A stretch of 64,000 nucleotides of DNA from Pseudomonadota bacterium (GTDB taxonomy: Bacteria; Myxococcota; JACRCW01; JAFGSX01), in contig JBDRCO010000003.1 of assembly GCA_043821645.1 (NCBI GenBank), positions 64,001 through 128,000 on the forward strand, in the 5' to 3' direction. A program made the position numbers and the translations under genes. The notes below the pieces were generated by a model, which was given only the letters and a program-made list of their open reading frames with translations, did no database searches and was not told the origin of the DNA. Positions 1 to 62,636 of this stretch are shown piece by piece. Within the stretch, counting starts at the first letter, position 1. The number at the start of each line of letters is the position of its first letter.

Positions 1-1804
1 GTTCCTCGTCAATCTGCTCCCCCGCATATCGATATAGGTTTTCGCTCGTCCCCGAACTACTCAGCTTCGATCCAAACGCCTCATAGGTGTAAGTGTCAGT
101 GACCGCCCCCACGTCGTCGGAGAGTGCCCTAGTCGAGAGTTGTCCGTCGACGAGATAGAAAGAGCCCGCACCAGACCGCTCAATACTCACCAAGTCATTC
201 GCATGCACATAGCTGGCGAGAGTCGAGCCAAGCCAATCACTCTCGACGAGCACCTGGCCATACTGCCTGTTCTTGTCGACGAGAAAACCCGTCACGTCGG
301 AGGCATTGACGACCTTCTTGGTCCTCAACCCACCATCATCGTACTCGAACAAAACTGCATTGCTTCCGTCGTCAAACGAGACGAGTCTGTTCTCCGCCGT
401 CCACCCATACACCTTCGAAACAACCGGCCCCACCTCCCCAGTCGTGTTGCCGTTGTCGTCGTAAGAGTAAGTGTAAACCCCATCCGGCCGCGTCTCAGTA
501 ATCAACCTGTCATTGGCATCGTAGGTGTACGAAGTGACACCTTCGACTGTGTCACTCTTGAGCAGCCTGTTGCCAAAGGCGTCATAAGTGCAAGCAATAT
601 TGCGGTCGCCGTTGACGGGAACGACGATGGCTTCCTCGGTGAGTCGGTACAAGTCGTCGTATGCGTAGTGAACGCTTCGCCCGTTGTGAACCTCAAAAAC
701 ATCCGTCCTGTTACCCGTCAGCCCGAGCAAATACTGGTAACTCGCAACCAGACTCCCGTCGCCACGCCGGTGCTCGATGAGCGTCAACCTGCCGAGCTGG
801 TCATAGCTGTTCGTCGTCACGATGCCGTTGGGCAAGGCCGCCGTGCGCTGCTGCCCCGTCGCCAGATAGGTGTAACTCGTCACCTGCCCGTCAGGGTCCG
901 TGACCGTGGCGATGCGGTTCAAAGCATCAAAGCTGTAGGCGGTAGTTCCACCAGCGTGAGCCACAGAGGCTCGGTTGCCTCTGCTGTCATATGAGTAACT
1001 CAGCCAAGACCCGTCAGGATTCGTCACCCGCGTCAGCCTGTCGCGATTATCGTAATCGTGATCAGTCGCTCCGCGGTGGTCCGTGACGACGTCCATTTGC
1101 CCCGTCGCCGTGTACGAAAAACTGACCTGCTGCCCGTTACCTATATCCTTGGCCGCGCGCCTGTTGTTGATATCGTAGCTTTTTACAATCATCTCTCCGT
1201 TGAATGTGGTCTGCTGGGTGACGTTGCCGCTGGGGTCGTAGGCAAACGACTCGTACTGACCGAGCGGCAGGCAGTGCTCGACCACACGACCGAGGTCGTC
1301 GTGCTTCCAGGTCGTGACGTGACCGTTGGGGTCCGTCTGTGAGATCTTGTTCCCCACCTTGTCATAACCATAGCGCGTCTGCCCGCCCAGCGCATCATCC
1401 ACGCCGGTCAGACGACCCAGGGCGTCATACAGGTAACCTGTCACGACCCCGGCCTGGTCCGTCTTCGCGACCAGGCGGCCGAGGGCGTCGTAGCCGTTCA
1501 GCATCACCGTGCCGTCGGCGAACAGGGTGCGGGTGTTGCGGCCCAGCTCAACGTAGTCGAGCTGCGTGGCGACACCCAGAGCGTCCGTCACGCTGGTGCG
1601 GTGGCCCCTGGCATCGAAGCCGAACTGGGTCAGGTTGCCCAGGGCATCGACCACGGCCACGCGCCGGCCCAGCTCGTCGTACTCGTATGCGGTGCGGTGG
1701 CCATTCTCGTCGACGCTGGCCACGGTGCGGCCGGCCGGGTCATACTCGGTGGAGGTGCTGCTGCCGTCGGCGTAGGTGGTCCGGACCAGGCGGTTCAAGG
1801 CGTA
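1..1804 (-). CDS. RHS/YD-repeat polymorphic toxin, 5'-truncated (orphan-type) fragment; 3' end (toxin tip) lies beyond the left window edge
   Basis: Manual minus-strand translation gives YD repeats (YDELGRRVAVVDALGN, YDALGRLVAKTDQAG, YDKVGNKISQTDPNG) and the RHS core (YLVDGQLSTRAL...VTDTYTYEAFG...NLYRYAGEQIDEE at the edge). It is absent from the ORF track because no stop lies inside the window. RHS-like sequence ends abruptly at 1804; an in-frame GTG at 1837 is a possible restart. Confidence 0.93.
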
Positions 1805-1823
1805 GGGGGTAGGTGGTTGGCAC
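1805..1823 (-). repeat. Inverted copy of the 19-bp repeat (minus strand GTGCCAACCACCTACCCCC)
   Basis: Plus strand gggggtaggtggttggcac; 17/19 identical to the reverse complement of the copies at 2490, 2540 and 2612. Confidence 0.85.
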
Positions 1824-1846
1824 CTGACAAGGGGCACCTGACAAGG
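1819..1846. repeat. Perfect 14-bp tandem duplication GGCACCTGACAAGG x2
   Basis: 1819-1832 and 1833-1846 are identical and overlap the inner end of the inverted 19-bp repeat. Confidence 0.9.
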
Positions 1847-1873
1847 GGAATTCGAGGAAAACGCGAGAGTAGT

Positions 1874-2311
1874 TCAACCTAGGACCATACTCTTCCAAGT
1901 ATCATCCATATTCTTCACACCGAGTTTCACAGTTTGTAGCCACTCCCTTGAACCAATGGGAATGACCATATCTCTAACATAAGCTCCGGTGATGCTTCTG
2001 CTATTTTTGCCGATAGATTTCATCTTCTCAACGTGCTTCAAATTGATTTGAAGCTCCGTCACCATTGCAGGCAATGCCCCTTTCTCGACACCCCATAGCG
2101 CAAGATTCTCGTGGCCATGCTCAGCAACATCAGAAAGAAATACATCTAGAAAATGTACATTGGCTTCCAACAAGGCCAGGCGCTGTATGTCGTCTTCTGC
2201 ATTTTCTAAGACAGCTTTGCCGAGTTGATAAGAGGCGACTTTCTTCGGGAGGTGATCGCCAAGAAGCATCGTGTAGACTTCGCCAATTGCTTGGGTTGTA
2301 TCGTCACGCAT
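1874..2311 (-). CDS. Low-GC hypothetical protein (145 aa), possible cassette or immunity-type gene
   Basis: ATG preceded by GAAGGA RBS; markedly AT-richer than the host; lies between the inverted 19-bp repeats; no family recognised. Confidence 0.7.
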   Translation of the reverse strand: MRDDTTQAIGEVYTMLLGDHLPKKVASYQLGKAVLENAEDDIQRLALLEANVHFLDVFLSDVAEHGHENLALWGVEKGALPAMVTELQINLKHVEKMKSIGKNSRSITGAYVRDMVIPIGSREWLQTVKLGVKNMDDTWKSMVLG

Positions 2312-2489
2312 AGATAATTTCCTTCAATGGCTTCCTTGGGTTATGTAGAGACAAGCCGAGCAGAATCAAAGAACAGGCTAAACCAGAACCTGTTCGTGAA
2401 CCTCTGCCTTCTTTGACATCTCCCATGTTCTTTCGCTCTCTGACCTGGTTTCGTGTGTCAGCTCTGATTGTCAGCCGCCCACTAAAAAA

Positions 2490-2630
2490 GTGCCAGCAAC
2501 CTACCCCCAGGCACCCGGCACTAGCAGCACTAGCACTAGGTGCCAGCAACCTACCCCCAGCGCACCTGGCACTAGCAGCACTAGCACTGCACTAGCAGTG
2601 CTGCACTAGAAGTGCCAGCAACCTACCCCC
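2490..2630 (+). repeat. Array of three GTGCCAGCAACCTACCCCC copies separated by GCACTAG(CA) micro-repeats
   Basis: Exact copies at 2490-2508, 2540-2558 and 2612-2630. The first two can fold with downstream (C/T)GGCAC into stem-loops. The linkers are rich in CTAG. Confidence 0.92.
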
Positions 2631-3083
2631 GGCGGTATCCCCCTGCGCCTGTTCAAGCTGGATCGCGCCTACGGCGAGCCGGCCCCGCTGTGCGCCGCCT
2701 GCCAGCGCATCGCGCGGGTGGCGCGCGAGCAGCTGCCGCTGTTCTACGACCGCGGCCACGCGCAGGGCCTGATCGCGATGCTCGAGCAGCGCACCGAGCA
2801 GCTGGCCGGCCTGATCGCCAGCCGCGACCGGGTGTCCGTGCGTTCGGCCAGTGGCCAGGCCCGGCGCGCCGCGCTCAAGCGCCTGCTGCTGGACGCGCTG
2901 ATGTACCTGGGGCCCTGGGGCCGCGACGTCACCGCCGGCGATGCCATGCGCCGCGAGCGCTACGCCCTGGACAAGCTGTTCCCCGCCGGCAGAGCGCGCA
3001 AGGGCAATGGATCCAGCGCTGCCGTCGACGACGAGGCGCTGGACGCCGCGGCCGCCGACCGCGCCCTGGGCCTGCCGGGCTGA
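2631..3083 (+). pseudogene. 5'-truncated host-like gene fragment (hypothetical protein C-terminus)
   Basis: GC3-rich reading frame (GGIPLRLFKLDRAYGEPAPLCAACQRIARVAREQLPLFYD...) begins immediately after the repeat; in-frame TAG at 2607-2609 and no ATG/RBS upstream; the ORF track starts it at GTG 2718. Confidence 0.6.
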
Positions 3084-7460: not shown

Positions 7461-9062
7461 ATGGGCAGCGCGGACAACTTGCAGCACGCACCAGCTCGCC
7501 CCGGGGAAGCCGGATCCGCTGCGCGCGCCGTGGTGCGGGCGCCGCTTCTCGCCGCCTTCGCCACCCTGGCGTTTGCCCTCGTCGACCTGGGGAGCACTCC
7601 AGCGCTGCATGGGGACGAGGCGTGGGTGCTGCTGCGCATCCTCGGCTTCGAGTGGCCTCACCTACCCTTTGCCGGCATGAACGCCTACACGGGGCCCGCG
7701 TGGTTGCTCCTGCTGTGGCCCATCGTCGCGATCGCAGGCCCGAGCACCCTCGTGCTGCGCCTGACCGCGGCGCTCGTTCAGGCGTGCAGCAGCGCCCTGC
7801 TCGTCGACGTGGCGCGACGTGCCTTCGGCGTCCAGTGGACCTCCCCCTGGCGCGTGCTGCTGCTGTGCAGTGCCCCCTTTGCCGTCTGCTACGGCCGCTT
7901 TGGCGTGGAGCTCACCACCGTCGTTCCACTGCTGCTGCTCGGTGGCGTCCGTCTGCTTGTAGTCTCGCCGCGTTCTGGTCGCCGGGCGCGTTGGCTGTGG
8001 GCCCTCGGCGGGCTGCTGCTGGGGCTGGCCTGCTACACGCACATCCTCGCCGTGATGCTGGTGGGCGCCGGAGCTGCCTCCGCCGCGCTTCGTGGTGCCG
8101 GCCTCAGAGCGCTGGTCGAGCGATGGCGACTCGCGCTGCTCGGGGGCGTGATCGGCATCGCGCCGAGCTTGTGGATGCTGGGCTCTGGAGCGGGGGGAAG
8201 CGGCTTCGAGCTCGGTCTTGCAGCCATACAGCGGCGATCCTGGGTCGACGCGCTCCTGGGCGCGCCCGCCATGTTCGAGGGCGTGCTCGACGGATGGATC
8301 GTGTTCTTGCAGTTCTGTGGCGAGCTCCGCGTGCCGGTGTTGCCCTGGGTGTCCGTCGCCTTGCTCGCCCTGCTGGTCCTGTGCGCCCGCGACGGCGGCC
8401 TGCGTGTGCTGCGTGAAGACCTCGCGCTGGCGGCCTTTGCCCTGTTTGGAACGATAGGCATCGCGCTGGTCGCGCCCTCGCCGCATCCCCGTTACTTGCT
8501 GGTGCCGGCCACGGTGGCCCTGGTGCTGCTGGTCCGGCTGCAACAGCGTCTGGGCCAGTCCGGATCCGCTCGCATGCGTGGCTTCGCCCGGGCCGTGCTT
8601 CCACTCCTGGTGTGCCTGCAGGTCGCGCAGCTGGGCGTGAACTTCTTCTGGACCTACCGCGAGCACCAGGGGGTCCCTCTGGTCGTCGAGGCCAGGGGAA
8701 ATGTCCAGGTGAGCGCCAACGAGTTCATCGAGACTGCCGAGCTTCGCGCGCAGCTCGCGGACCAGGGCGTGGTCGCCGTGCTCGGGGCACCCTTGCTGGT
8801 GTGGACCCTCCTGCACGAGGATCTGGTGGCGCAACGCTTCGCCCTGGGTGAGCTGCCGCCCGGGCAGCTTCCGCCCACGGACCCTCGCCTGGCCTCGGTG
8901 AAGACGGCGATCGTGTACTACAACGGCGACAACCTGTGGGCCGGGCAGCTGTACGACTTCACGAACATCGAGCGCATCGCGGGGTCCCAGCGAAGCTTCG
9001 TCCGCGACCGCCGCTTCGACGCTCGCTTTGCGGTCTTTGTCGCCGCAGCCTCCGGTTGGTGA
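7461..9062 (+). CDS. Polytopic membrane protein, GT-C (ArnT/PMT-like) glycosyltransferase
   Basis: First loop 'PALHGDE', many TM segments, 'PRYL' motif; start uncertain (ORF open from 7356). Confidence 0.6.
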   Translation: MGSADNLQHAPARPGEAGSAARAVVRAPLLAAFATLAFALVDLGSTPALHGDEAWVLLRILGFEWPHLPFAGMNAYTGPAWLLLLWPIVAIAGPSTLVLRLTAALVQACSSALLVDVARRAFGVQWTSPWRVLLLCSAPFAVCYGRFGVELTTVVPLLLLGGVRLLVVSPRSGRRARWLWALGGLLLGLACYTHILAVMLVGAGAASAALRGAGLRALVERWRLALLGGVIGIAPSLWMLGSGAGGSGFELGLAAIQRRSWVDALLGAPAMFEGVLDGWIVFLQFCGELRVPVLPWVSVALLALLVLCARDGGLRVLREDLALAAFALFGTIGIALVAPSPHPRYLLVPATVALVLLVRLQQRLGQSGSARMRGFARAVLPLLVCLQVAQLGVNFFWTYREHQGVPLVVEARGNVQVSANEFIETAELRAQLADQGVVAVLGAPLLVWTLLHEDLVAQRFALGELPPGQLPPTDPRLASVKTAIVYYNGDNLWAGQLYDFTNIERIAGSQRSFVRDRRFDARFAVFVAAASGW

Positions 9063-11018: not shown

Positions 11019-13589
11019 GTGACGAAACCACGCGGGCCTGCTTTGATAGCCCTCGTGGGGCCAGGCGGGGCATCCGGGGAGGTCGTGGTGAACTGCGAGC
11101 AGGAGCTGCGGCGGGCGCTGGGCGATTCGTCGGTGTCGGTTCTCGACGTGGACCGCTGGGCCTATGCCCGCGACCTGTCGGTGCGAGGCATCATCCGGGC
11201 GCGGGGCGGCGCGGCTTTTTCGCGACCGCTTGCGGTGGTGTGGCCTCGCAGCAGCGCACAGTTGCAGGAACTGGTGGCCCTGGCTCGGCAGCACCACCTC
11301 GAGCTGGTTCCCTACGGCGCTGGCTCCGGTGTCGTCGGCGGCCTCGAGGCGGGCTCCAGAACCGTGGTCGTCGATCTCAAGCGCTTCGACGCGCTGGAAC
11401 TGGACGCCGGGCGCGGCGAGGCGGTGGCCGGAGCCGGGGTCATCGGTGAGCAGCTCGAGCGCTGGCTCAACGAGCGCGGCTTCTCGCTGGGGCACTTTCC
11501 GTCGTCGATCTACTGCAGCACCGTGGGTGGCTGGGTGGCGACCCGCTCGGCCGGTCAGCTGTCGTCGCGCTACGGAAAGATCGAGGACATGGTGCGCTGG
11601 GTCGAGGGCGTGGACGGTTGCGGGCGGGTGTGGCGCCTGAACCGTGGCGACCGGGACCTCGACGCTCTGGGCCTCGCGGTGGGCAGCGAGGGTGGGCTGA
11701 TCATCCTCACCCGCATCGGGCTGTCGGTGCATCGCCTGCCGTCCCACCGGGCGCTGCGCGGCGCGGACTTTCCGTCGGTGGTGCAGGCCCTGGATGCGAT
11801 GCGGCAGATCATGCGCGCGGGTCTGGCGCCGGTGATCCTGCGCCTGTACGACCCGCTGGATACGCTGCTGTCCGGCCATTCCGGGGGCGAAGCCGACGAA
11901 GCAGCGAGTGCCGTGGAGCGCGGCGTGGTGGGTCGGGCCGGGCTCGAGCAGATCCGCGCCCCGGGGCTGGCCTCCGCTCCTGGCGCGGACGACCCCTCGC
12001 GCTCCTTGCTGGCACGTCTGGCGAACGCCTTGGGCATCGAGGAGAGCACGGCCGATGCGTCCCGATCCGCGCTGCGGCGGCTGGCGGTCCTTGGCAGCGG
12101 TGCGTGGCCGCGCCTGGGTGGGCTGCTGGCAGATCGCGCGCGGCGTTGCCGCATCGTCTATGGCTTCGAGGGCAGTGAAGACGAGGTGACGGCGGCGGAG
12201 CAGGCGGCCCGGTCGCTGGTCGAGGCCTGCGGCGGCACCGACCGTGGTGCAGGGCCAGGGCGCCACTGGCTCGACCGGCGCTATGCCGTGTCGTACAAGA
12301 TGAGCCGCGTGCTCGATGCCGGTCTGTGGGTCGACACCTTCGAGGTGGCTGCCCGCTGGTCGCGCTTGCTCGATGTGTACCACGCGGTCCGCCACGCCGT
12401 GCAGGGCAACGCGCTGTGCCTGGCGCACTTCTCCCACGCCTATGTGGACGGCTGCTCCATCTACTTCTCCTTCGTCGGGGGTGGCGATGGGGTCGATGAG
12501 GCCGTGGCCCAGCATGCCGAGGCCTGGCGGGCCGGGCTGTGGGCAGCGCGCGGCGCCGGAGCGGTGCTCAGCCACCACCATGGCATCGGTCGCCTCAAGG
12601 CCGAGGTCCTGGCTGGCACGGAAGGCCCTGGCTCGACGCTGCTGCGCTCCACTCTCAAGCGCTGCTTCGACCCGGATGCCGTGCTCAATCCCGGGGTGCT
12701 GACCAGTCCGAGCGCGAGCCTGGACGCGGATCAGCAGGCGCAGGCCTCTCCCACCCTCACGGGCCTGCGACCACTGCACGGCTTCGAGCTGGACATGTCC
12801 AGTGGCCTGGTTCGCGTGCCACCACAGCTGGCTCTTGGCGAGCTGGCGCGACGGCTGGCGCGCGTCGATCTCGAACTCGGCGCACGCCCGGCGGCCTTCG
12901 GGGACCTCACCGTCCAGGGCGCTCTGCGTCTGCAGGACCCGCGCATCCTGGCTCGGCTGACCTCGATCGAGGCGCGGATCCAGGGCCAGGCACTGTCCGC
13001 TCCCCTGGCGCCGAGAGCAGCCACCGGCTCGGATCTCAAGGCCTTCGTCGTCGGCGAGGAGGCGCCGCCGGTGCACCTGGACAGGTTGTGGCTGGCGGTG
13101 CGCGAGCTGGTCGCGCCCAGCGCGGTGAGCTTCGACTGCGGTCAGCCATCGAGGCTCGCCGAGACCGCGAGCTGGCTGGTCGAGGTTGGTGCCACCGCGG
13201 TGGAACTCTCCGTCGCTGCTGGCCGGGCGAGGCTGACCTTGTGGGTGCCGGGTGCCGGACCAGGATGGGCGGTCTGGCAGGCCAGGGTGGAGCTGTTGAA
13301 GCGGCGCTTCGGAGAGGTCGTGTCCCAGGATGGGGACTGGGCCGCCGCCGGCCCCGCCACAGGGTGGTGCGAACCCCTGCTGGTGTTCTTCGACGTCGAT
13401 CTGGCGGCGCTGCTGCAGCGGCTGCTGGTGCGCGGACCGGACAGCTCAGCACGCCTGCAACTCGCGCCCCGCGGTGGCCTGGTCCTCTCCGGCTGCAGCG
13501 CTGTCGAGGTCGAGGATATCGCGGCCCGGGGACGCTCGGGATGGGCCCCCCTGCTGGGTCTGGCCGCGCAGGCGGGGGGGGGCGCATGA
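11019..13589 (+). CDS. FAD-linked oxidase, alkylglycerone-phosphate synthase-like, with an extra C-terminal degenerate FAD-binding domain
   Basis: PYGAGSGV, GHFPSSIYCSTVGGW, SSRYGKIED, HFSHAY, SHHHGIG, DPxxVLNPG; about 300-aa C-terminal extension. Confidence 0.8.
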   Translation: MTKPRGPALIALVGPGGASGEVVVNCEQELRRALGDSSVSVLDVDRWAYARDLSVRGIIRARGGAAFSRPLAVVWPRSSAQLQELVALARQHHLELVPYGAGSGVVGGLEAGSRTVVVDLKRFDALELDAGRGEAVAGAGVIGEQLERWLNERGFSLGHFPSSIYCSTVGGWVATRSAGQLSSRYGKIEDMVRWVEGVDGCGRVWRLNRGDRDLDALGLAVGSEGGLIILTRIGLSVHRLPSHRALRGADFPSVVQALDAMRQIMRAGLAPVILRLYDPLDTLLSGHSGGEADEAASAVERGVVGRAGLEQIRAPGLASAPGADDPSRSLLARLANALGIEESTADASRSALRRLAVLGSGAWPRLGGLLADRARRCRIVYGFEGSEDEVTAAEQAARSLVEACGGTDRGAGPGRHWLDRRYAVSYKMSRVLDAGLWVDTFEVAARWSRLLDVYHAVRHAVQGNALCLAHFSHAYVDGCSIYFSFVGGGDGVDEAVAQHAEAWRAGLWAARGAGAVLSHHHGIGRLKAEVLAGTEGPGSTLLRSTLKRCFDPDAVLNPGVLTSPSASLDADQQAQASPTLTGLRPLHGFELDMSSGLVRVPPQLALGELARRLARVDLELGARPAAFGDLTVQGALRLQDPRILARLTSIEARIQGQALSAPLAPRAATGSDLKAFVVGEEAPPVHLDRLWLAVRELVAPSAVSFDCGQPSRLAETASWLVEVGATAVELSVAAGRARLTLWVPGAGPGWAVWQARVELLKRRFGEVVSQDGDWAAAGPATGWCEPLLVFFDVDLAALLQRLLVRGPDSSARLQLAPRGGLVLSGCSAVEVEDIAARGRSGWAPLLGLAAQAGGGA

Positions 13590-41240: not shown

Positions 41241-42694
41241 GTGGCGGCTCTCACCCGCTCGCGCACCAGGTTGTAGCCCCAGTGGGCCACGCTGAGGGGG
41301 CCGAGCCTGGACAGGATCTCGCGGTAGATCACGGGCCGTCGTCTGGCGGCCTCGCGCAAGAAGCCGATGAACTGCTCGGGTGCCATCTGGTCCTTGAGCA
41401 AGGCCGCGTAATCGTCGTTGCCCAGGCCGTGCAACACGCCAAAGGCGGTGTCGAGCAGCTCGTTGAGCGCGCCGGCGCGATCCGGACGTCGCGGCGGCAC
41501 GGCAATCATCATGGCCAGGGCACCGGTGCCAGCGTGAATCGCCTCGTCCTCGAGCACGTGGCTGCCCGCGAAGCGCGGCACGGGCTGGTCGCGCACCAGG
41601 GCCGCGATGGAGCGGGACACGGGGACAAAGGTCCGCAGCATGTGGCCGAAGCCGCAAAAAGTCAGGGGAGACTGGCGCGCGGCGGCGTCTCCCACCAGGA
41701 CACAGCGAGCATGTGGCGGTGTCGACGGAGGACCCAACCGCGACCATCCGGGGATGTAACCGAAGGTGGGTCTGAGCAGCCTGGCCGCACCGCGCTTGTA
41801 GCGGGGCAGGGTGTCGAAGAAGCGGGCGTAAAGGCGGAGCAGCGCATCATCGGGAACATCGTCGCTGCGCGCGTAGTAGAACTGGTAGGTCGTGAGTTCA
41901 CCGGGCCGTCCCGGAAATCCTTCCCAGATGTGCTGGCGACCGTCCTCGACGCCCTCGGTGGTGACCAGGATGTCGCCCACACCGGGATCCAGCTCGTCGT
42001 CGGCGGGGCCCGAAGCCAGCCCCGTGAGCACGCCGCCCACCGTGGGACAGAGCAGATCCGACCTGGCGTAAGGAGACGAGGCACCGCGAGCATCGACCAG
42101 GACTCGCGTGCTGACCTCGCGTGTGGCACCGTCCACCGCAAAGCGCAGGGATACGCCGTGCTCGCCGAAGCGCTCGCCCACCAGGGCATGACCGTCGTGA
42201 ATCTCGACCCCACGCACCACGGCGCGATCGCGCACAGCATCGAGCAAGGCACCGGCATCGACGGCATTGTCCAGCACACCCTGCACAGGATAGCGCCCAC
42301 CTCGGTGCCAGCGACAGACCCCCTGGGCGTAGCGTGCCACCACCAGAGCCTGCACCTCGTCGTCGCTGAACAGCCCGGCCTCGACCAGGGGCCTGAGCTC
42401 GGGCGCGCTGGCATTCCACTCCCGGTGGGCCGTGCCAGCGCGGTGTCGCTCGAACACGCCCACGCGCAGACCCTGGTCCGCCAGCACCGGTGCCAGCAAC
42501 AGGCTCAGCCCTCCACCAGCCAGCACCACGTCGTAGTCCACCGCAGCGCTGGCGTCGGGTGGGGTGGCCGCCTCACCAGGCCTGGGCGATTGCCGAGCTC
42601 GCTCGCATCGCATGGCTTCGAGCTGCACCAAGCGCTCGGTGAGCTCGTCGCCACCGCTGTCGCGAATGCGGGCGATGAGGTCCGTGCGGTTCAC
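41237..42694 (-). CDS. cruA: CruA/CruP-family lycopene cyclase (FAD-dependent)
   Basis: REWNxS, LCPTVG, IWEGFPG, TFGYIPG, GDAAARQSPLTFCGFG; coupled to crtB. Confidence 0.75.
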   Translation of the reverse strand: MNRTDLIARIRDSGGDELTERLVQLEAMRCERARQSPRPGEAATPPDASAAVDYDVVLAGGGLSLLLAPVLADQGLRVGVFERHRAGTAHREWNASAPELRPLVEAGLFSDDEVQALVVARYAQGVCRWHRGGRYPVQGVLDNAVDAGALLDAVRDRAVVRGVEIHDGHALVGERFGEHGVSLRFAVDGATREVSTRVLVDARGASSPYARSDLLCPTVGGVLTGLASGPADDELDPGVGDILVTTEGVEDGRQHIWEGFPGRPGELTTYQFYYARSDDVPDDALLRLYARFFDTLPRYKRGAARLLRPTFGYIPGWSRLGPPSTPPHARCVLVGDAAARQSPLTFCGFGHMLRTFVPVSRSIAALVRDQPVPRFAGSHVLEDEAIHAGTGALAMMIAVPPRRPDRAGALNELLDTAFGVLHGLGNDDYAALLKDQMAPEQFIGFLREAARRRPVIYREILSRLGPLSVAHWGYNLVRERVRAAT

Positions 42695-60881: not shown

Positions 60882-62636
60882 TCAGTTCACGTGCTTGTTC
60901 TTCTCGAAGTACTCGAACAGCTTGGGTGAGTTGGCCTTCATCCACTGCGGATCGGTGCGGTACAGCGAGTACGCCTCGGCGTAGAACTCCTGGGCGCCCT
61001 CCTTGGCCGCGTAGTCCGTGAAGGGCAAGATCTTGTTGTCCTTGACGTACTTGGAAAAGCTCTGGAGCCGTGCGCTGGTGTCGCCGGGGCCACTGGCCGT
61101 CGTCTCCACGGCCCGGGCCGTGGCCATGGTCCGGGCCAGGTCCGCGCGGGTGTCCTGGGCAGCGGCCATGTCCTTGGCCGCGCGCGCGGTGGGGTCGCTG
61201 TCCGGGAGCTTGGCCAGGGCCGCGTCACGGTTCTTGATCGCGGTCGCCAGGGCGGTCTTGGCGGTCTTGACCTGGCTGTCGGTCTTGGCATCGGACAGAG
61301 CCTGGGTCTTCTTGTCCACGTCCTGGATGGCGCCATTGACCTTGAGGGCAGGCCGCTGCAGGGAGACCCCGCTGGTCTGCGCGTAGTACGTGTCGGCGGC
61401 GCTCTTGTAGTCGCCCAGGGTGTGCTTGTTGTAGGCCTCGGTGGCGACGTTGCGCGTGTTCATCGCGCTGTTCAACTTCTCGGCCTCGACGGCGTGGCCA
61501 GCCTCGTGCACCAGGGTCTGCACCGAGGGTGGCAGGCGGCTACCGGCGGCACCACTGCCGACGAAGCTGTTCGCATCGCCCTTGAATGTGTCATCGCCGA
61601 CGCGGATGCTCTTTTTGTAGCTGGCCGGCGGACCGACGTCGACATCCGCCTTGAACTCGGCCACGCGGGAACCACCCAGGGATGTGTGGCGCTCGAGCAC
61701 GATGCCCTTGAGGGCGTCGCGCTCGGCGCCCGAGGTCAGGCTGAACGCCGCATGGGCCTTGTTCAGCTCGTCCAGGGCAAAGGCCTTGGGCGTACTCGAG
61801 ACGGTGACGCCGAAGTCCTTCTGCAGTGCTTTCTTGGCCTCGTCGACGGTCTTGAAGGTCGAGGTCGCGGGGATCTCTGCCGTGCCTGGGCCGTGCAGGG
61901 TGACCGTCGCCTTGCCCGCCTTGCTGATCTCGGCGCTGATGGCGTTCTTGGTGCCGTTGAGGTCGACGATGCGGTCCTGGTGCCCGCCCTTCTCAGCATT
62001 GACCGAGTGCAACAGCGCGTGCTTGGCGTCGGCAGCCTCGGCGCTCTTGGGGTCCTTGAAGGGGGGCTTGAACTCGACGCCACCCGGGTATTCGGCGGCG
62101 AGAGCCTTGTCCAGGCGGGTGTGGGTCGCGGCGAGCTTGTCGGCCTTGCGCTCGGCGGCACTCAGCGGCGTGTTGAGCTTGCCACCGTTCATCACCGTGC
62201 CGTCGTACTTGTACTTGGTGCCCAGGTCGGCCTTGTCGCCGCCGTACTTGTAACCGAGGGTCTCGGAGCGTGCACCAGGCCGGGCCAGCTGCGCGGGGCG
62301 GGGCAGGGTCGAGGCGCCCAGCATGGCCCTGGACACCTCGGCGTTCAGGGCCTGGTCGACCTGGACCGCCTTCTTTTTCTTCTTCTTCGAGGTCTTGCCC
62401 ACACTCGCGTTCTCGATGTGGGTCAGCTTGCCGCCATCCTGGGGTCGGGCCGTCGTGTGAAACCGGTCCGCGGAGCCCGTGCTCTTGAGACCTGCATGCT
62501 CCTCGGTGGAGGCAGGAGCCTTCGCGGTCTCCGGGGTCGAGGAGGCCTGGGTGGTCGACGGCGCTGTCTGGGTGGCGGGCGAGGGCGCGACGGTCGGTGC
62601 TGGCCCGGGCTGGGCCGGGGTTCGGATCGTGCTCAT
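60882..62636 (-). CDS. Zn-metallopeptidase (HEXXH, lethal-factor/gluzincin-like C-terminus) with low-complexity N-terminus
   Basis: LVHEAGHAVE and distal YA...EFYAEAYSLY; P/T/A/S-rich N-terminus; no signal peptide. Confidence 0.7.
   Translation of the reverse strand: MSTIRTPAQPGPAPTVAPSPATQTAPSTTQASSTPETAKAPASTEEHAGLKSTGSADRFHTTARPQDGGKLTHIENASVGKTSKKKKKKAVQVDQALNAEVSRAMLGASTLPRPAQLARPGARSETLGYKYGGDKADLGTKYKYDGTVMNGGKLNTPLSAAERKADKLAATHTRLDKALAAEYPGGVEFKPPFKDPKSAEAADAKHALLHSVNAEKGGHQDRIVDLNGTKNAISAEISKAGKATVTLHGPGTAEIPATSTFKTVDEAKKALQKDFGVTVSSTPKAFALDELNKAHAAFSLTSGAERDALKGIVLERHTSLGGSRVAEFKADVDVGPPASYKKSIRVGDDTFKGDANSFVGSGAAGSRLPPSVQTLVHEAGHAVEAEKLNSAMNTRNVATEAYNKHTLGDYKSAADTYYAQTSGVSLQRPALKVNGAIQDVDKKTQALSDAKTDSQVKTAKTALATAIKNRDAALAKLPDSDPTARAAKDMAAAQDTRADLARTMATARAVETTASGPGDTSARLQSFSKYVKDNKILPFTDYAAKEGAQEFYAEAYSLYRTDPQWMKANSPKLFEYFEKNKHVN

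Follow-up and report, generated by a model that had tools for sequence, protein, structure and literature searches.

A REPtron/TIRtron-like locus with two gene truncations at the ends of its repeats

REPtrons are described as tnpA_REP (RAYT) genes flanked by REPs, the gene for E. coli TnpA_REP (PDB 4ER8) being one example (PMC8266576; see also PMC2817692). For three characterised TnpA_REP enzymes, the same article gives CT as the cleavage dinucleotide, and in the strand-transfer product that it describes, foreign DNA is joined 5ʹ of the REP. In a second example, REPtron Mb (group 3) of Marinomonas, 5-bp palindromes stand next to GTAG (PMC8266576). In TIRtrons (TIRYT), as described by Di Nocera et al. 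(2013, PMC3733652), a RAYT-like gene carries terminal inverted repeats, many of them GGGGWSAS.

The locus analysed here, part of which lies in a 64,000-nt stretch of contig C3 (the window), is a REPtron/TIRtron-like system, a known kind of mobile DNA, with rearrangement scars. We assign it to this kind because its Y1 gene is flanked by inverted repeat copies, the b copies of the repeat combine GTAG with a hairpin, and CT stands at the boundary of several copies. As in REPtrons, the enzyme is a Y1 HUH protein with conserved HUH and Tyr, its gene lies between inverted copies of a short repeat, GTAG directly precedes the 5-bp stem in the b copies, CT is found at several boundaries, and each paralog has its own repeat variant. 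In contrast to REPtrons, the Y1 protein is about twice as long, with a C-terminal extension of ~160 aa and a Tyr motif of the form Y...[HN]G; the upstream repeat copies form tandem arrays of imperfect units, and two repeat ends coincide with gene breakpoints. Whereas classical REPs are dispersed extragenically in their hundreds, we find 12 local copies (≤3 mismatches).

TIRtrons and the TnpA_Y1 subclass 2.1 of Quentin et al. (2018, PMC6006769) share several features with this locus: a RAYT-like gene with inverted repeats that start GGGG; repeat families that are absent or moderately abundant, and sometimes occur as dimers or clusters; long proteins that have additional C-terminal domains and the HUH motif NH[YF]H; and several divergent paralogs per genome, each with different repeats. 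However, the repeat ends here are GGGGGTAG, GGGGAAGG or GGCGATAG, which do not match GGGGWSAS as that motif is given in PMC3733652, and the C-terminal part of the protein has no HTH family match.

Three other kinds of system invite comparison. IS200/IS605 elements (IS608, ISDra2), in which hairpins define the ends, cleavage falls at a fixed short distance and no target duplication is expected, have a transposase of the same catalytic fold family (PF01797), and a distant homolog in genome G031 has IS200-like direct ends. Unlike these elements, the region has no tnpB-like ORF, the protein has 313 aa rather than ~150, the gene-flanking repeats are inverted, and the gene copies are 53-67% identical rather than near-identical. 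Orphan Rhs arrays are resembled by a 5ʹ-truncated rhs gene that retains the core end and a C-terminal domain and has a gene at its stop codon, and by another small low-GC gene that precedes it and whose family is seen near toxin genes; they differ in that no full-length, core-sharing rhs was found in this assembly and the 5ʹ boundary is a transposase-associated repeat. In contrast to integrons, which have an IntI integrase, an attI site and cassettes that end in attC hairpins, there is no PF00589 match on contig C3, which also disfavours the tyrosine recombinase that the initial annotation had offered as an alternative, and the repeats are tied to the Y1 enzyme instead.

Repeat copies and Y1 transposase genes

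The 19-mer GTGCCAGCAACCTACCCCC matches the plus strand of the window exactly at 2490-2508, 2540-2558 and 2612-2630, and a pattern search places an inverted copy, b2, at 1805-1823 (minus-strand match, 2 mismatches, 17/19); these positions agree with those first annotated. At ≤3 mismatches the window contains 5 matches, against a mean of 0.02 in 100 shuffles, none of which reached 5 (0/100). The match at 42305 (C3:106305; 3 mismatches) is probably due to chance. Across the 7.07-Mb genome, the same threshold yields 12 copies, 11 of which fall in two loci, each beside a Y1 gene, and no clear copy is more than about 4 kb away from such a gene. A genome scan with a 13-base core motif gave 13 matches in the two Y1 loci and 10 single matches elsewhere. 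A degenerate repeat pattern, searched across genome contigs, hit 120 stretches, as single matches in unrelated phyla, which is the chance level for 15 specified bases. No Rfam family was found in L006 12000-20000.

Profile searches identified an intact gene for a RAYT-like, IS200-like Y1 HUH transposase (313 aa) at G000:C3:61236-62177, where G000 is the genome under study. The gene ends 1.8 kb left of the window start and lies 3.6 kb from the copy at 1805; the statement that no transposase is nearby therefore holds inside the window and fails just beyond it. The protein matches Pfam Y1_Tnp (PF01797; E 6.2e-7; 30 bits, cut-off 23) and, over profile positions 3-144 of 146, the NCBIfam REP-associated tyrosine transposase NF047646 (E 1.7e-19), with a score of 70.2 that is under the equivalog cut-off of 80. 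Among proteins of solved structure, its best relative is E. coli TnpA_REP (4ER8), and the alignment covers both HUH and Tyr. All 17 of the 17 members of the Y1 family compared have SNHxH, W, Y and WPG unchanged, and the Tyr motif of the family differs from the class-2 motif Y...NP as listed in Table 1 of PMC6006769. The C-terminal extension is conserved and matches no Pfam family. A search for related loci with the single Y1 protein returned only 3 weak relatives. Members of this Y1 subfamily are present in 24 of 41 genomes sampled from the phylum.

The C3 Y1 gene has a tandem array of three copies (+) upstream and one inverted copy (-) downstream. The order along the plus strand is: a-array of three copies (a1), Y1 gene, inverted b copy (b1), 283-aa gene, truncated Rhs gene (Rhsʹ), b2, ORF145, a2 array of three copies, and a fragment of a gene of a ~330-aa family. 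A paralog on contig C63 (67% identical) has its own repeat variant, GTGCCACCAACCTATCGCC, with array, gene and inverted copy ordered as on C3; the C63 copies are intergenic, around a lipase-like gene that reads as whole. Overall, the three G000 paralogs are 53-67% identical. In genome G005, a homolog (38% identical) has an upstream array of GAAAAGGTGCCAACCGAATCGCCCC and an inverted GGCACCATTTT downstream, and all 4 copies of the repeat are in one array, the transposase's own. Two Y1 copies in G031 belong to a common 1.31-kb unit (89% identity), both ends of which have a hairpin and GAGGTCCGT in direct orientation, and several homologs in G037, G031 and G014 lie at contig ends. The proposal that the repeat is a site for a HUH/RAYT-like enzyme is well supported by the intact Y1 gene with the same inverted repeat and by the paralog with a co-varying variant. 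Elsewhere in the assembly, on contig C82, IS110-like fragments adjoin GGTGCCATCGA, with no intact copy assembled. A sigma-factor region-4 remnant beside the C63 b copy, considered on a motif resemblance, was rejected; it has no Pfam match.

On its opposite strand, the repeat has the form GGGG-GTAG with a short hairpin after it, a combination characteristic of REPs. Copy b2 (1805..1823, plus strand reading GGGGGTAGGTGGTTGGCAC) has the GTAG tag and then a 5-bp stem, AGGTG/CACCT, with a 5-nt loop; this stem is its sole centroid structure. The tag and stem are the same in b1, and a clean hairpin is formed by the b copies only. A 14-bp unit, GGCACCTGACAAGG, is tandemly duplicated at 1819..1848 (L006 17819-17848; 2.1 copies, 100% matches, no strand assigned) and repeats the 3ʹ part of b2. 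The a2 array (2490..2630, minus strand) consists of three a-type copies with GCACTAG-rich spacers between them; in REP orientation (minus strand) they read GGGGGTAGGTTGCTGGCAC, with an imperfect stem, and tandem analysis of the array gave a period of 51, 2.0 copies and 95% matches. The tag is GTAG in b1, b2 and the a2 units, GAAG in the a1 units and ATAG in the C63 copies. Folding better than that of shuffles was confined to the a2 arrays of C3 (z -2.5) and C63 (z -3.8); the a1 arrays and single-copy regions did no better than shuffles. CT stands directly 5ʹ of GGGG/GGCG in b1, a2-1, a2-2 and C63 a2-2, that is, in 4 of 12 copies, two of the four being duplicates of each other.

Gene truncations at the repeat ends

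The GGGG end of b2 adjoins the truncated Rhs gene, and the GGGG end of the last a2 copy adjoins the fragment at 2631. Two genes 5ʹ-truncated at the CCCCC ends of the repeat, both in the same reading phase as the repeat, had been annotated initially. Both truncations are real, as an RHS core profile and homolog alignments confirm, and the phase can be read from the sequence. Nor are the junctions assembly artefacts, a worry that is removed by contigs of runs X1, X3 and X4 that bridge them.

Rhsʹ (2..1837, minus strand) belongs to an ORF of 850 aa that extends 715 bases left of the window start. The ORF begins inside the repeat; its first 11 codons come from the repeat and its flank, and the YD repeats begin immediately past the CCCCC end. 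The product matches RHS_repeat (E 1.2e-66); residues 15-225 align to RHS_core positions 480-691 of 1261, and residues 585-664 constitute Rhs_assc_core. The Rhsʹ/b2 junction is bridged with 0 differences by contigs of X3 and X4, which come from two other studies. The 283-aa gene starts at the Rhsʹ stop codon. No paralog of Rhsʹ in the genome exceeds 31% identity, the best ones being on other contigs, and no full-length rhs with shared core sequence was found in the assembly (94.7% complete). RHS repeats are absent from the upstream 930-aa ORF, whose stop lies ~170 bases before the array.

The fragment at 2631..3083 (plus strand) is a 5ʹ-truncated gene of a ~330-aa family that has no known domain and no Pfam family. 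In 7 of 9 loci from two same-class genomes, it aligns from its residue 2 to residues 167-222 of homologous open frames of 303-383 aa; ~170-220 N-terminal residues are missing. The missing half was not recovered from the assembly by tblastn with one homolog, and a profile of the N-terminal parts of 8 homologs, run against all six-frame ORFs, gave a best E of 0.071. The 2630/2631 junction is bridged by an X1 contig. The frame leading into the fragment is closed by a TAG at 2607-2609, seven codons ahead of the junction, so that this junction cannot yield a fusion product.

In b2 and a2-3, the foreign gene begins at the exact position where other copies carry CT. A further case may be a truncated Y1 paralog on contig C112, in which homology to the C128 gene starts right after a 17-nt piece that matches the 3ʹ half of b1 and the adjoining flank without a difference; this is probably a third gene breakpoint at a repeat boundary. 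There are therefore at least two, and probably three, gene breakpoints exactly at repeat boundaries where intact copies carry CT. The coincidence of breakpoints with repeat ends follows in part from the delimitation of the repeat itself, since similarity between copies ends at GGGG by definition.

With a GC content of 0.45-0.49, the DNA between the repeat copies is below both its flanks (0.70-0.76) and the genome as a whole (0.672), in agreement with the low-GC cassette of the initial annotation. This DNA contains ORF145 (1874..2311, minus strand), a low-GC orphan ORF to which neither Pfam nor NCBIfam assigns a family. It is probably an orphan immunity-type gene. Its 22 remote homolog clusters consist of proteins of ~150 aa, the family occurs in 8 of 401 genomes of the phylum, and in 2 of 5 contexts examined it adjoins a protein with an AHH nuclease domain (PF14412). 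A word-based homolog search recovered only ORF145 itself, and an atlas search gave weak ankyrin-like leads, all under 0.9. Upstream of ORF145, a putative toxin remnant of 60 codons (window 2307-2489, minus strand) lacks a Pfam match and resembles none of the genes upstream of ORF145 homologs.

Do the repeats shuffle toxin genes, as had been suggested? Our data do not support this. Copies were found beside Y1 transposase genes but not at other Rhs loci: six other contig regions have Rhs-like matches (two on C31, and one each on C43, C68, C118 and C134), and at ≤3 mismatches all six lack the repeat. There is no partner Rhs with which to swap above the 31% identity noted above, and the copies on C63 flank a lipase-like gene. 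Contigs of four runs (X1-X4) contain no alternative junctions, inverted joints, other orders or circles at the repeats, the X2-X4 contigs covering the locus in short pieces that are silent on rare variants. Most likely, the system is not toxin-specific, and the Rhs gene either suffered collateral damage or was carried along as a passenger.

Origin of the junctions

We are moderately confident that the 19-mer serves a RAYT-like Y1 HUH single-strand DNA transposase as its cognate REP/TIR-type repeat, and that the junctions are fossil breakpoints at repeat ends. By analogy with characterised TnpA_REP enzymes, the Y1 protein would bind the folded single-stranded repeat, cut beside it and form a 5ʹ-phosphotyrosine link. 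Joining to a non-cognate 3ʹ-OH, or a later deletion between two copies, would then place breakpoints at the very edge of the repeat. On this reading, both junctions are fossils of such events, which would have removed the 5ʹ halves of the divergently oriented Rhs and 330-family genes and left the low-GC immunity-type cassette between the repeats. Several points speak against a TnpA_REP-like reading: the NCBIfam score under the cut-off and the divergent Tyr motif, the few and local repeats, the clean hairpin in b copies only, CT at the boundary of only 4 of 12 copies, the way in which the repeat is delimited, and the lack of alternative junctions or circles in contigs. In addition, the two sides of the 826-bp unit carry GGCGTA and GGCGGTA, a near-duplication (edit distance 1) that is unexpected for a Y1 enzyme and that ~1.4% of random flank pairs equal in a post-hoc test; the absence of a target-site duplication, as first annotated, is nearly true.

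An alternative explanation, which we regard as unlikely, is that array a1, array a2 and everything between them (C3:61046-66630, 5.6 kb) make up a single IS200/IS605-like transposon that carries passenger genes. The direct a-arrays would be its left and right ends, 2630/2631 the point of right-end insertion or cleavage in the 330-family gene, and the Rhs segment a passenger gained at the internal b site. C3 and C63 do share an a-array, a Y1 gene, an inverted b copy, cargo and an a-array in direct orientation; GC content is under the genome mean over most of the C3 stretch; the G031 unit has direct-orientation ends, as in IS200-type elements; and the location of homologs at contig ends (G037, G031, G014) is as expected for multi-copy elements. 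However, the 5ʹ half of the 330-family gene is neither at the left end nor elsewhere in the assembly, which excludes a simple insertion, and the low identity of the G000 paralogs excludes recent transposition. The lack of tnpB, and a protein twice the length of IS200 TnpA, also count against such an element. Orthologs of the FadB-like flank gene and the 930-aa ORF in the nearest genomes are only 32-60% identical and on other, unlinked contigs; hence, no pre-insertion state can be reconstructed by synteny.

It is also possible, though improbable in our view, that the repeats are passive. They would serve as short homologies for RecA-dependent or slipped-strand deletion, copies having settled in the dispensable DNA of an orphan toxin/immunity array, and the transposase would have no catalytic part in the junctions. 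Orphan Rhs arrays are prone to recombination. In a contig variant of X1, 184 bases are missing between two array units that have 13 letters in common, which shows that deletion mediated by repeats occurs in the population, and units are duplicated within arrays. Nonetheless, passive repeats would require two prior, independent repeat insertions into two coding sequences, and would leave unexplained why foreign sequence starts at the position of CT in other copies.

The idea of the initial annotation, in its strongest form, would be an integron-like, single-strand cassette platform, in which the Y1 enzyme cuts at the CT/GGGG boundary and joins foreign 3ʹ ends, so that genes are captured, truncated and reordered beside the enzyme's own locus. 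The repeats would delimit units, the cassettes being the 283-aa gene with Rhsʹ, ORF145, and the C63 lipase-like gene. Every C3 repeat copy is indeed at a gene-unit boundary, two of these boundaries being truncations; the GC content of the cassettes deviates; and the ORF145 family lies beside AHH toxin genes in some contexts. We nevertheless consider such a platform very unlikely, given that there are only two such loci in the genome, with unrelated cargo, that the G005 repeats are confined to the transposase's own array, that the contigs of four runs contain no alternative orders, and that the repeat is at no other toxin locus. Inversion of segments between 19-bp sites by a shufflon-type site-specific recombinase, swapping C-terminal gene parts, might be suggested by the inverted sites, the in-phase coding junctions and a possible resemblance to the start of the plasmid R64 shufflon sites, but is already largely refuted by the location of all five PF00589 matches in the genome off contig C3, an upstream 930-aa ORF without RHS repeats, the closed frame into the 2631 fragment and the lack of inverted forms in contigs, and almost certainly does not apply.

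What is the significance of fossil breakpoints beside a RAYT-like gene? The cellular role of RAYT-type domesticated transposases is still debated, and in vivo cleavage and strand-transfer products of RAYT enzymes other than REP spread are hardly documented; a full-text literature search found no paper linking RAYT/TnpA_REP to Rhs genes or gene truncation. The locus is a small, tractable case: its RAYT-like enzyme is long and divergent, and its cognate repeats number only a dozen. If the enzyme does not make such junctions, this is an ordinary REPtron/TIRtron beside a decayed toxin island. If it does, bacterial genomes would owe some of their precise deletions and gene truncations to RAYT systems.

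Repeat copies and the genes they truncate

Within the window, GTGCCAGCAACCTACCCCC occurs exactly at 2490, 2540 and 2612 on the plus strand and with two mismatches at 1805–1823 on the minus strand, in agreement with the initial annotation (17 of 19 positions at the inverted copy). At ≤3 mismatches there are five matches in the window, compared with a mean of 0.02 in 100 dinucleotide shuffles, none of which had five. Tandem Repeats Finder describes the right-hand array (a2) as a 51-bp unit present 2.0 times plus a third copy, and reports a 14-bp duplication adjoining the left-hand copy (b2). The low GC content noticed between the repeats is genuine (0.45–0.49, versus 0.70–0.76 in both flanks and 0.672 for the genome). 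This 826-bp repeat-bounded unit is flanked by GGCGTA (1799–1804) and GGCGGTA (2631–2637), which are at edit distance 1, a similarity equalled by 1.35% of random flank pairs from the assembly in a post-hoc simulation. Such near-duplicate flanks are not an expected product of a Y1 enzyme.

Both genes beside the repeats are truly 5ʹ-truncated at the repeat ends, as first proposed. Rhsʹ, the 850-aa minus-strand gene left of b2 (RHS_repeat, E 1.2e-66), has its ORF start inside the 1805 copy. Its residues 15–225 align with positions 480–691 of the 1261-position RHS core profile, and the core end is retained at 585–664. Since alignment begins only at core position 480, some 470 positions at the start of the core are missing from Rhsʹ, as is any N-terminal domain. 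The plus-strand fragment at 2631–3083 belongs to a family (the 330 family) found in three of the 41 genomes searched, including the one studied here; the relatives' two genomes are of the same class. In seven of nine homologous loci, with open frames of 303–383 aa, the first aligned position is residue 2 in the fragment and residue 167–222 in the homolog; in the remaining two, alignment begins at residue 20–21. The N-terminal half of the gene gave no tblastn match in the assembly (completeness 94.7%) with one homolog as query, and a best E of 0.071 when an eight-homolog profile was compared with all six-frame ORFs. The family is multi-copy, with five matches each in genomes G002 and G003 (loci L009–L016). 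Its proteins are ~300–380 aa long, are rich in Lys and Ala at the N-terminus and lack Pfam domains; the copy at G002:C70 adjoins a weak Y1 transposase match. The two junctions do share a codon phase, but TAG at 2607–2609 closes the frame into the 2631 fragment, which leaves the agreement in phase without evident significance.

The junctions are real, and not artefacts of assembly. The Rhsʹ/b2 junction is bridged with zero differences by Logan contigs of sequencing runs from two other studies: record 21 of run X3 (197 bases on one side, 36 on the other) and record 31 of run X4 (40 and 362 bases). The a2/2631 junction is bridged by a 2967-base contig of run X1, a non-independent run and possibly the source sample. 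The alternative joints that the initial annotation suggested looking for were not seen at b2 or a2 in the contigs of four runs, although contig assembly loses rare variants.

A RAYT-like transposase and its repeat variants

Genome-wide, 11 of the 12 copies of the 19-mer (≤3 mismatches) lie in two loci, on contig C3, of which the window is positions 64001–128000, and on contig C63. On C3 there are three tandem copies (array a1) at 61064–61142 (+), single copies at 62394 (−; b1) and 65805 (−; b2, window 1805), and the three copies of a2 at 66490–66630 (+; window 2490–2630). On C63, copies are found at 73233 (−), 72018 (+), 70172 (−) and 70119 (−). The twelfth match, GTGCCAGCGACAGACCCCC at C3:106305 (window 42305–42323), has three mismatches and no GTAG/ACCT core, and is probably due to chance.

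The HUH/RAYT-like enzyme guessed at from the window has a counterpart amid the same repeats to its left: an intact 313-aa ORF with SNHFHLIV, between C3:61143 and 62393. It matches Pfam Y1_Tnp (IS200-like) at 30 bits versus a cut-off of 23, and the NCBIfam “REP-associated tyrosine transposase” over profile positions 3–144 of 146 (E 1.7e-19; 70.2 bits, under the 80-bit equivalog cut-off). The closest solved structure is E. coli TnpA_REP (4ER8), with which the HUH motif and catalytic Tyr align (E 0.049). An alignment of 17 Y1 members from 10 genomes shows no variation in SNHxH, a Trp, the Tyr, WPG and a C-terminal FP. The genome has three full paralogs, on C3, C63 (67% identity) and C128 (53%), and a distant one on C32; across the phylum, 24 of the 41 genomes sampled contain a family member. 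Many homologs (in G037, G031, G014, G015 and G017) are partial or at contig ends, a pattern expected of multi-copy elements, which break assemblies. G005 and G031, two genomes of the same genus, each have one Y1 copy beside common flanking DNA (80% identity over 3.7 kb).

The repeats fall into an “a” type (..CAACCT..), which is arrayed in tandem and points the same way as the transposase gene, and a “b” type (..CCACCT..), which is single and inverted. The order on C3 is a1 and the Y1 gene, rightward; b1, a 283-aa gene, Rhsʹ, b2 and ORF145, leftward; and a2 and the truncated 330-family gene, rightward. On C63, in gene orientation, a forward a copy and the forward Y1 gene are followed by an inverted b copy, a lipase-like gene that reads as whole, and two forward a copies. 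Since the same layout occurs with different repeats on C3 and C63, each paralog owns a co-varying repeat variant. A G005 homolog that is only 38% identical has the same plan, with an array of GAAAAGGTGCCAACCGAATCGCCCC upstream and inverted GGCACCATTTT downstream, and these repeats occur nowhere else in that genome. Six other Rhs-like contig regions of the studied assembly (two on C31 and one each on C43, C68, C118 and C134) carry no repeat copy at ≤3 mismatches. The repeats thus accompany Y1 genes and were not found in those other Rhs-like regions, which indicates that they belong to the transposase, not the Rhs genes, and leaves repeat-guided toxin shuffling unsupported.

At C63:71880–72040 (L007:9880–10040, minus strand), two overlapping frames without a Pfam match adjoin the C63 b copy on its GTGCC side; by motif they could be read as a frameshifted remnant of sigma-70 region 4. 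Within a1, one X1 contig skips 184 bases (L006:12931–13116 of the region extending left of the window; C3:60931–61116) between units with 13 common letters, indicating that arrays differ in length within the population.

Repeat ends and the origin of the junctions

The reverse complement of the 19-mer reads GGGG-GTAG-GT(G/T)G(N)TGGCAC. In b1 and b2, GTAG continues without a gap into a hairpin with a 5-nt loop, whose 5-bp stem (AGGTG/CACCT) is the sole structure surviving in centroid folds of the two regions. A short palindrome with GTAG at its 5ʹ foot typifies REPs. According to PMC8266576, the TnpA_REP enzymes that have been characterised bind REP DNA as a folded single strand, in which GTAG serves for recognition or guidance, and their cleavage site is a CT dinucleotide on either the 5ʹ or the 3ʹ side of the hairpin. 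Palindromes of 5 bp occur in one group 3 system, and strand transfer attaches a foreign 3ʹ-OH to the cleaved REP at its 5ʹ side. CT lies immediately 5ʹ of GGGG or GGCG in the non-junction copies b1, a2-1, a2-2 and C63 a2-2. In the junction copies, b2 and a2-3, the Rhs and 330-family sequences start exactly where other copies carry CT, although inter-copy similarity ends at GGGG by construction, which limits the weight of this breakpoint argument. The junctions have the topology of the strand-transfer product described for TnpA_REP. The breakpoint argument is further limited in that CT is at the boundary in only four of the 12 copies, of which two duplicate each other, and in that stems are imperfect in the a-type units and the a1 arrays show no better folding than shuffles.

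Contig C112 carries a 5ʹ-truncated Y1 paralog fragment. Immediately before the point at which its homology to the C128 gene starts is a 17-nt piece, TGGCACCTTTCCTGGGG, that matches the 3ʹ half of b1 and its flank without a difference. The 17 bases preceding b1 on C3 are found again downstream of this fragment. A second, shorter copy at the start of C112 adjoins a C128-type repeat; the two copies (C112:1–500 and 7900–8320; 96% identical) each start directly after a repeat piece. A C128-type unit array follows the first copy, and an additional b-like copy is at C112:12082 (12075–12100). At C82:5200–7900, clustered repeat-like pieces (GGAATAGGTGGC three times, GGAAGAGGTGCCTGGC twice, and GAAAAGGTGCCA) are interleaved with N- and C-terminal transposase-like fragments, presumably of the IS110 family, and a small minus-strand ORF that may be rhodanese-like.

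What else could have made the junctions? Passive repeat-mediated deletion may have done so. The stretch from a1 to a2 could also be one IS200-like transposon with passengers, given that the outer arrays on C3 and C63 are in direct orientation and that an IS200-like 1.31-kb unit in G031 is common to two copies at 89% identity; this reading is countered by the lack of the remaining part of the 330-family gene and by the age of the Y1 paralogs. A site-specific recombinase is unlikely, since contig C3 has no PF00589 match and the 930-aa ORF upstream does not encode the N-terminal part of an Rhs protein.

Associated genes and relationship to known systems

ORF145, between b2 and a2, has no Pfam or NCBIfam family. 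It has 22 remote homolog clusters (~150 aa), and its family is present in eight of 401 genomes of the phylum. ORF145 is likeliest to be an orphan immunity gene, because the family adjoins an AHH nuclease-domain protein in two of five contexts examined. The 283-aa gene and the Rhs C-terminal domain occupy L006:14433–15284 and L006:15285–15860 (C3:62433–63860, minus strand), left of the window. The Rhs C-terminal domain shows an HxH...SxxD pattern, along with a Prok-JAB (JAB-like) match that is weak and below cut-off (E 0.011). The 283-aa gene begins at the Rhsʹ stop codon and encodes a partial PBP-type peptidoglycan transglycosylase domain (PF00912, E 1.6e-15); its product is an unusual candidate for an immunity protein.

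The C3 system shares with REPtrons the enzyme, inverted flanking repeats and, in its b and a2 copies, the GTAG tag. It resembles the TIRtrons of Di Nocera et al. (PMC3733652; Quentin et al., PMC6006769) in that its inverted repeats start with GGGG, though they depart from the GGGGWSAS motif, dispersed copies are few or absent, its proteins are long, and its several paralogs carry different repeats. It differs in five features: the Tyr motif reads Y...[HN]G, the C-terminal extension is conserved yet matches no family, tandem arrays stand upstream of the transposase gene, the repeat population is small and local, and repeat ends fall at gene breakpoints. In full-text searches we found no paper linking RAYT/TnpA_REP to Rhs genes or gene truncation; the sole paper found with both terms handles them separately. 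The original observation and enzymatic guess stand; the proposed purpose, toxin shuffling, lacks support. The C3 locus appears to be a divergent representative of the REPtron/TIRtron kind, and two precise rearrangement scars, probably three, are marked by its repeats.
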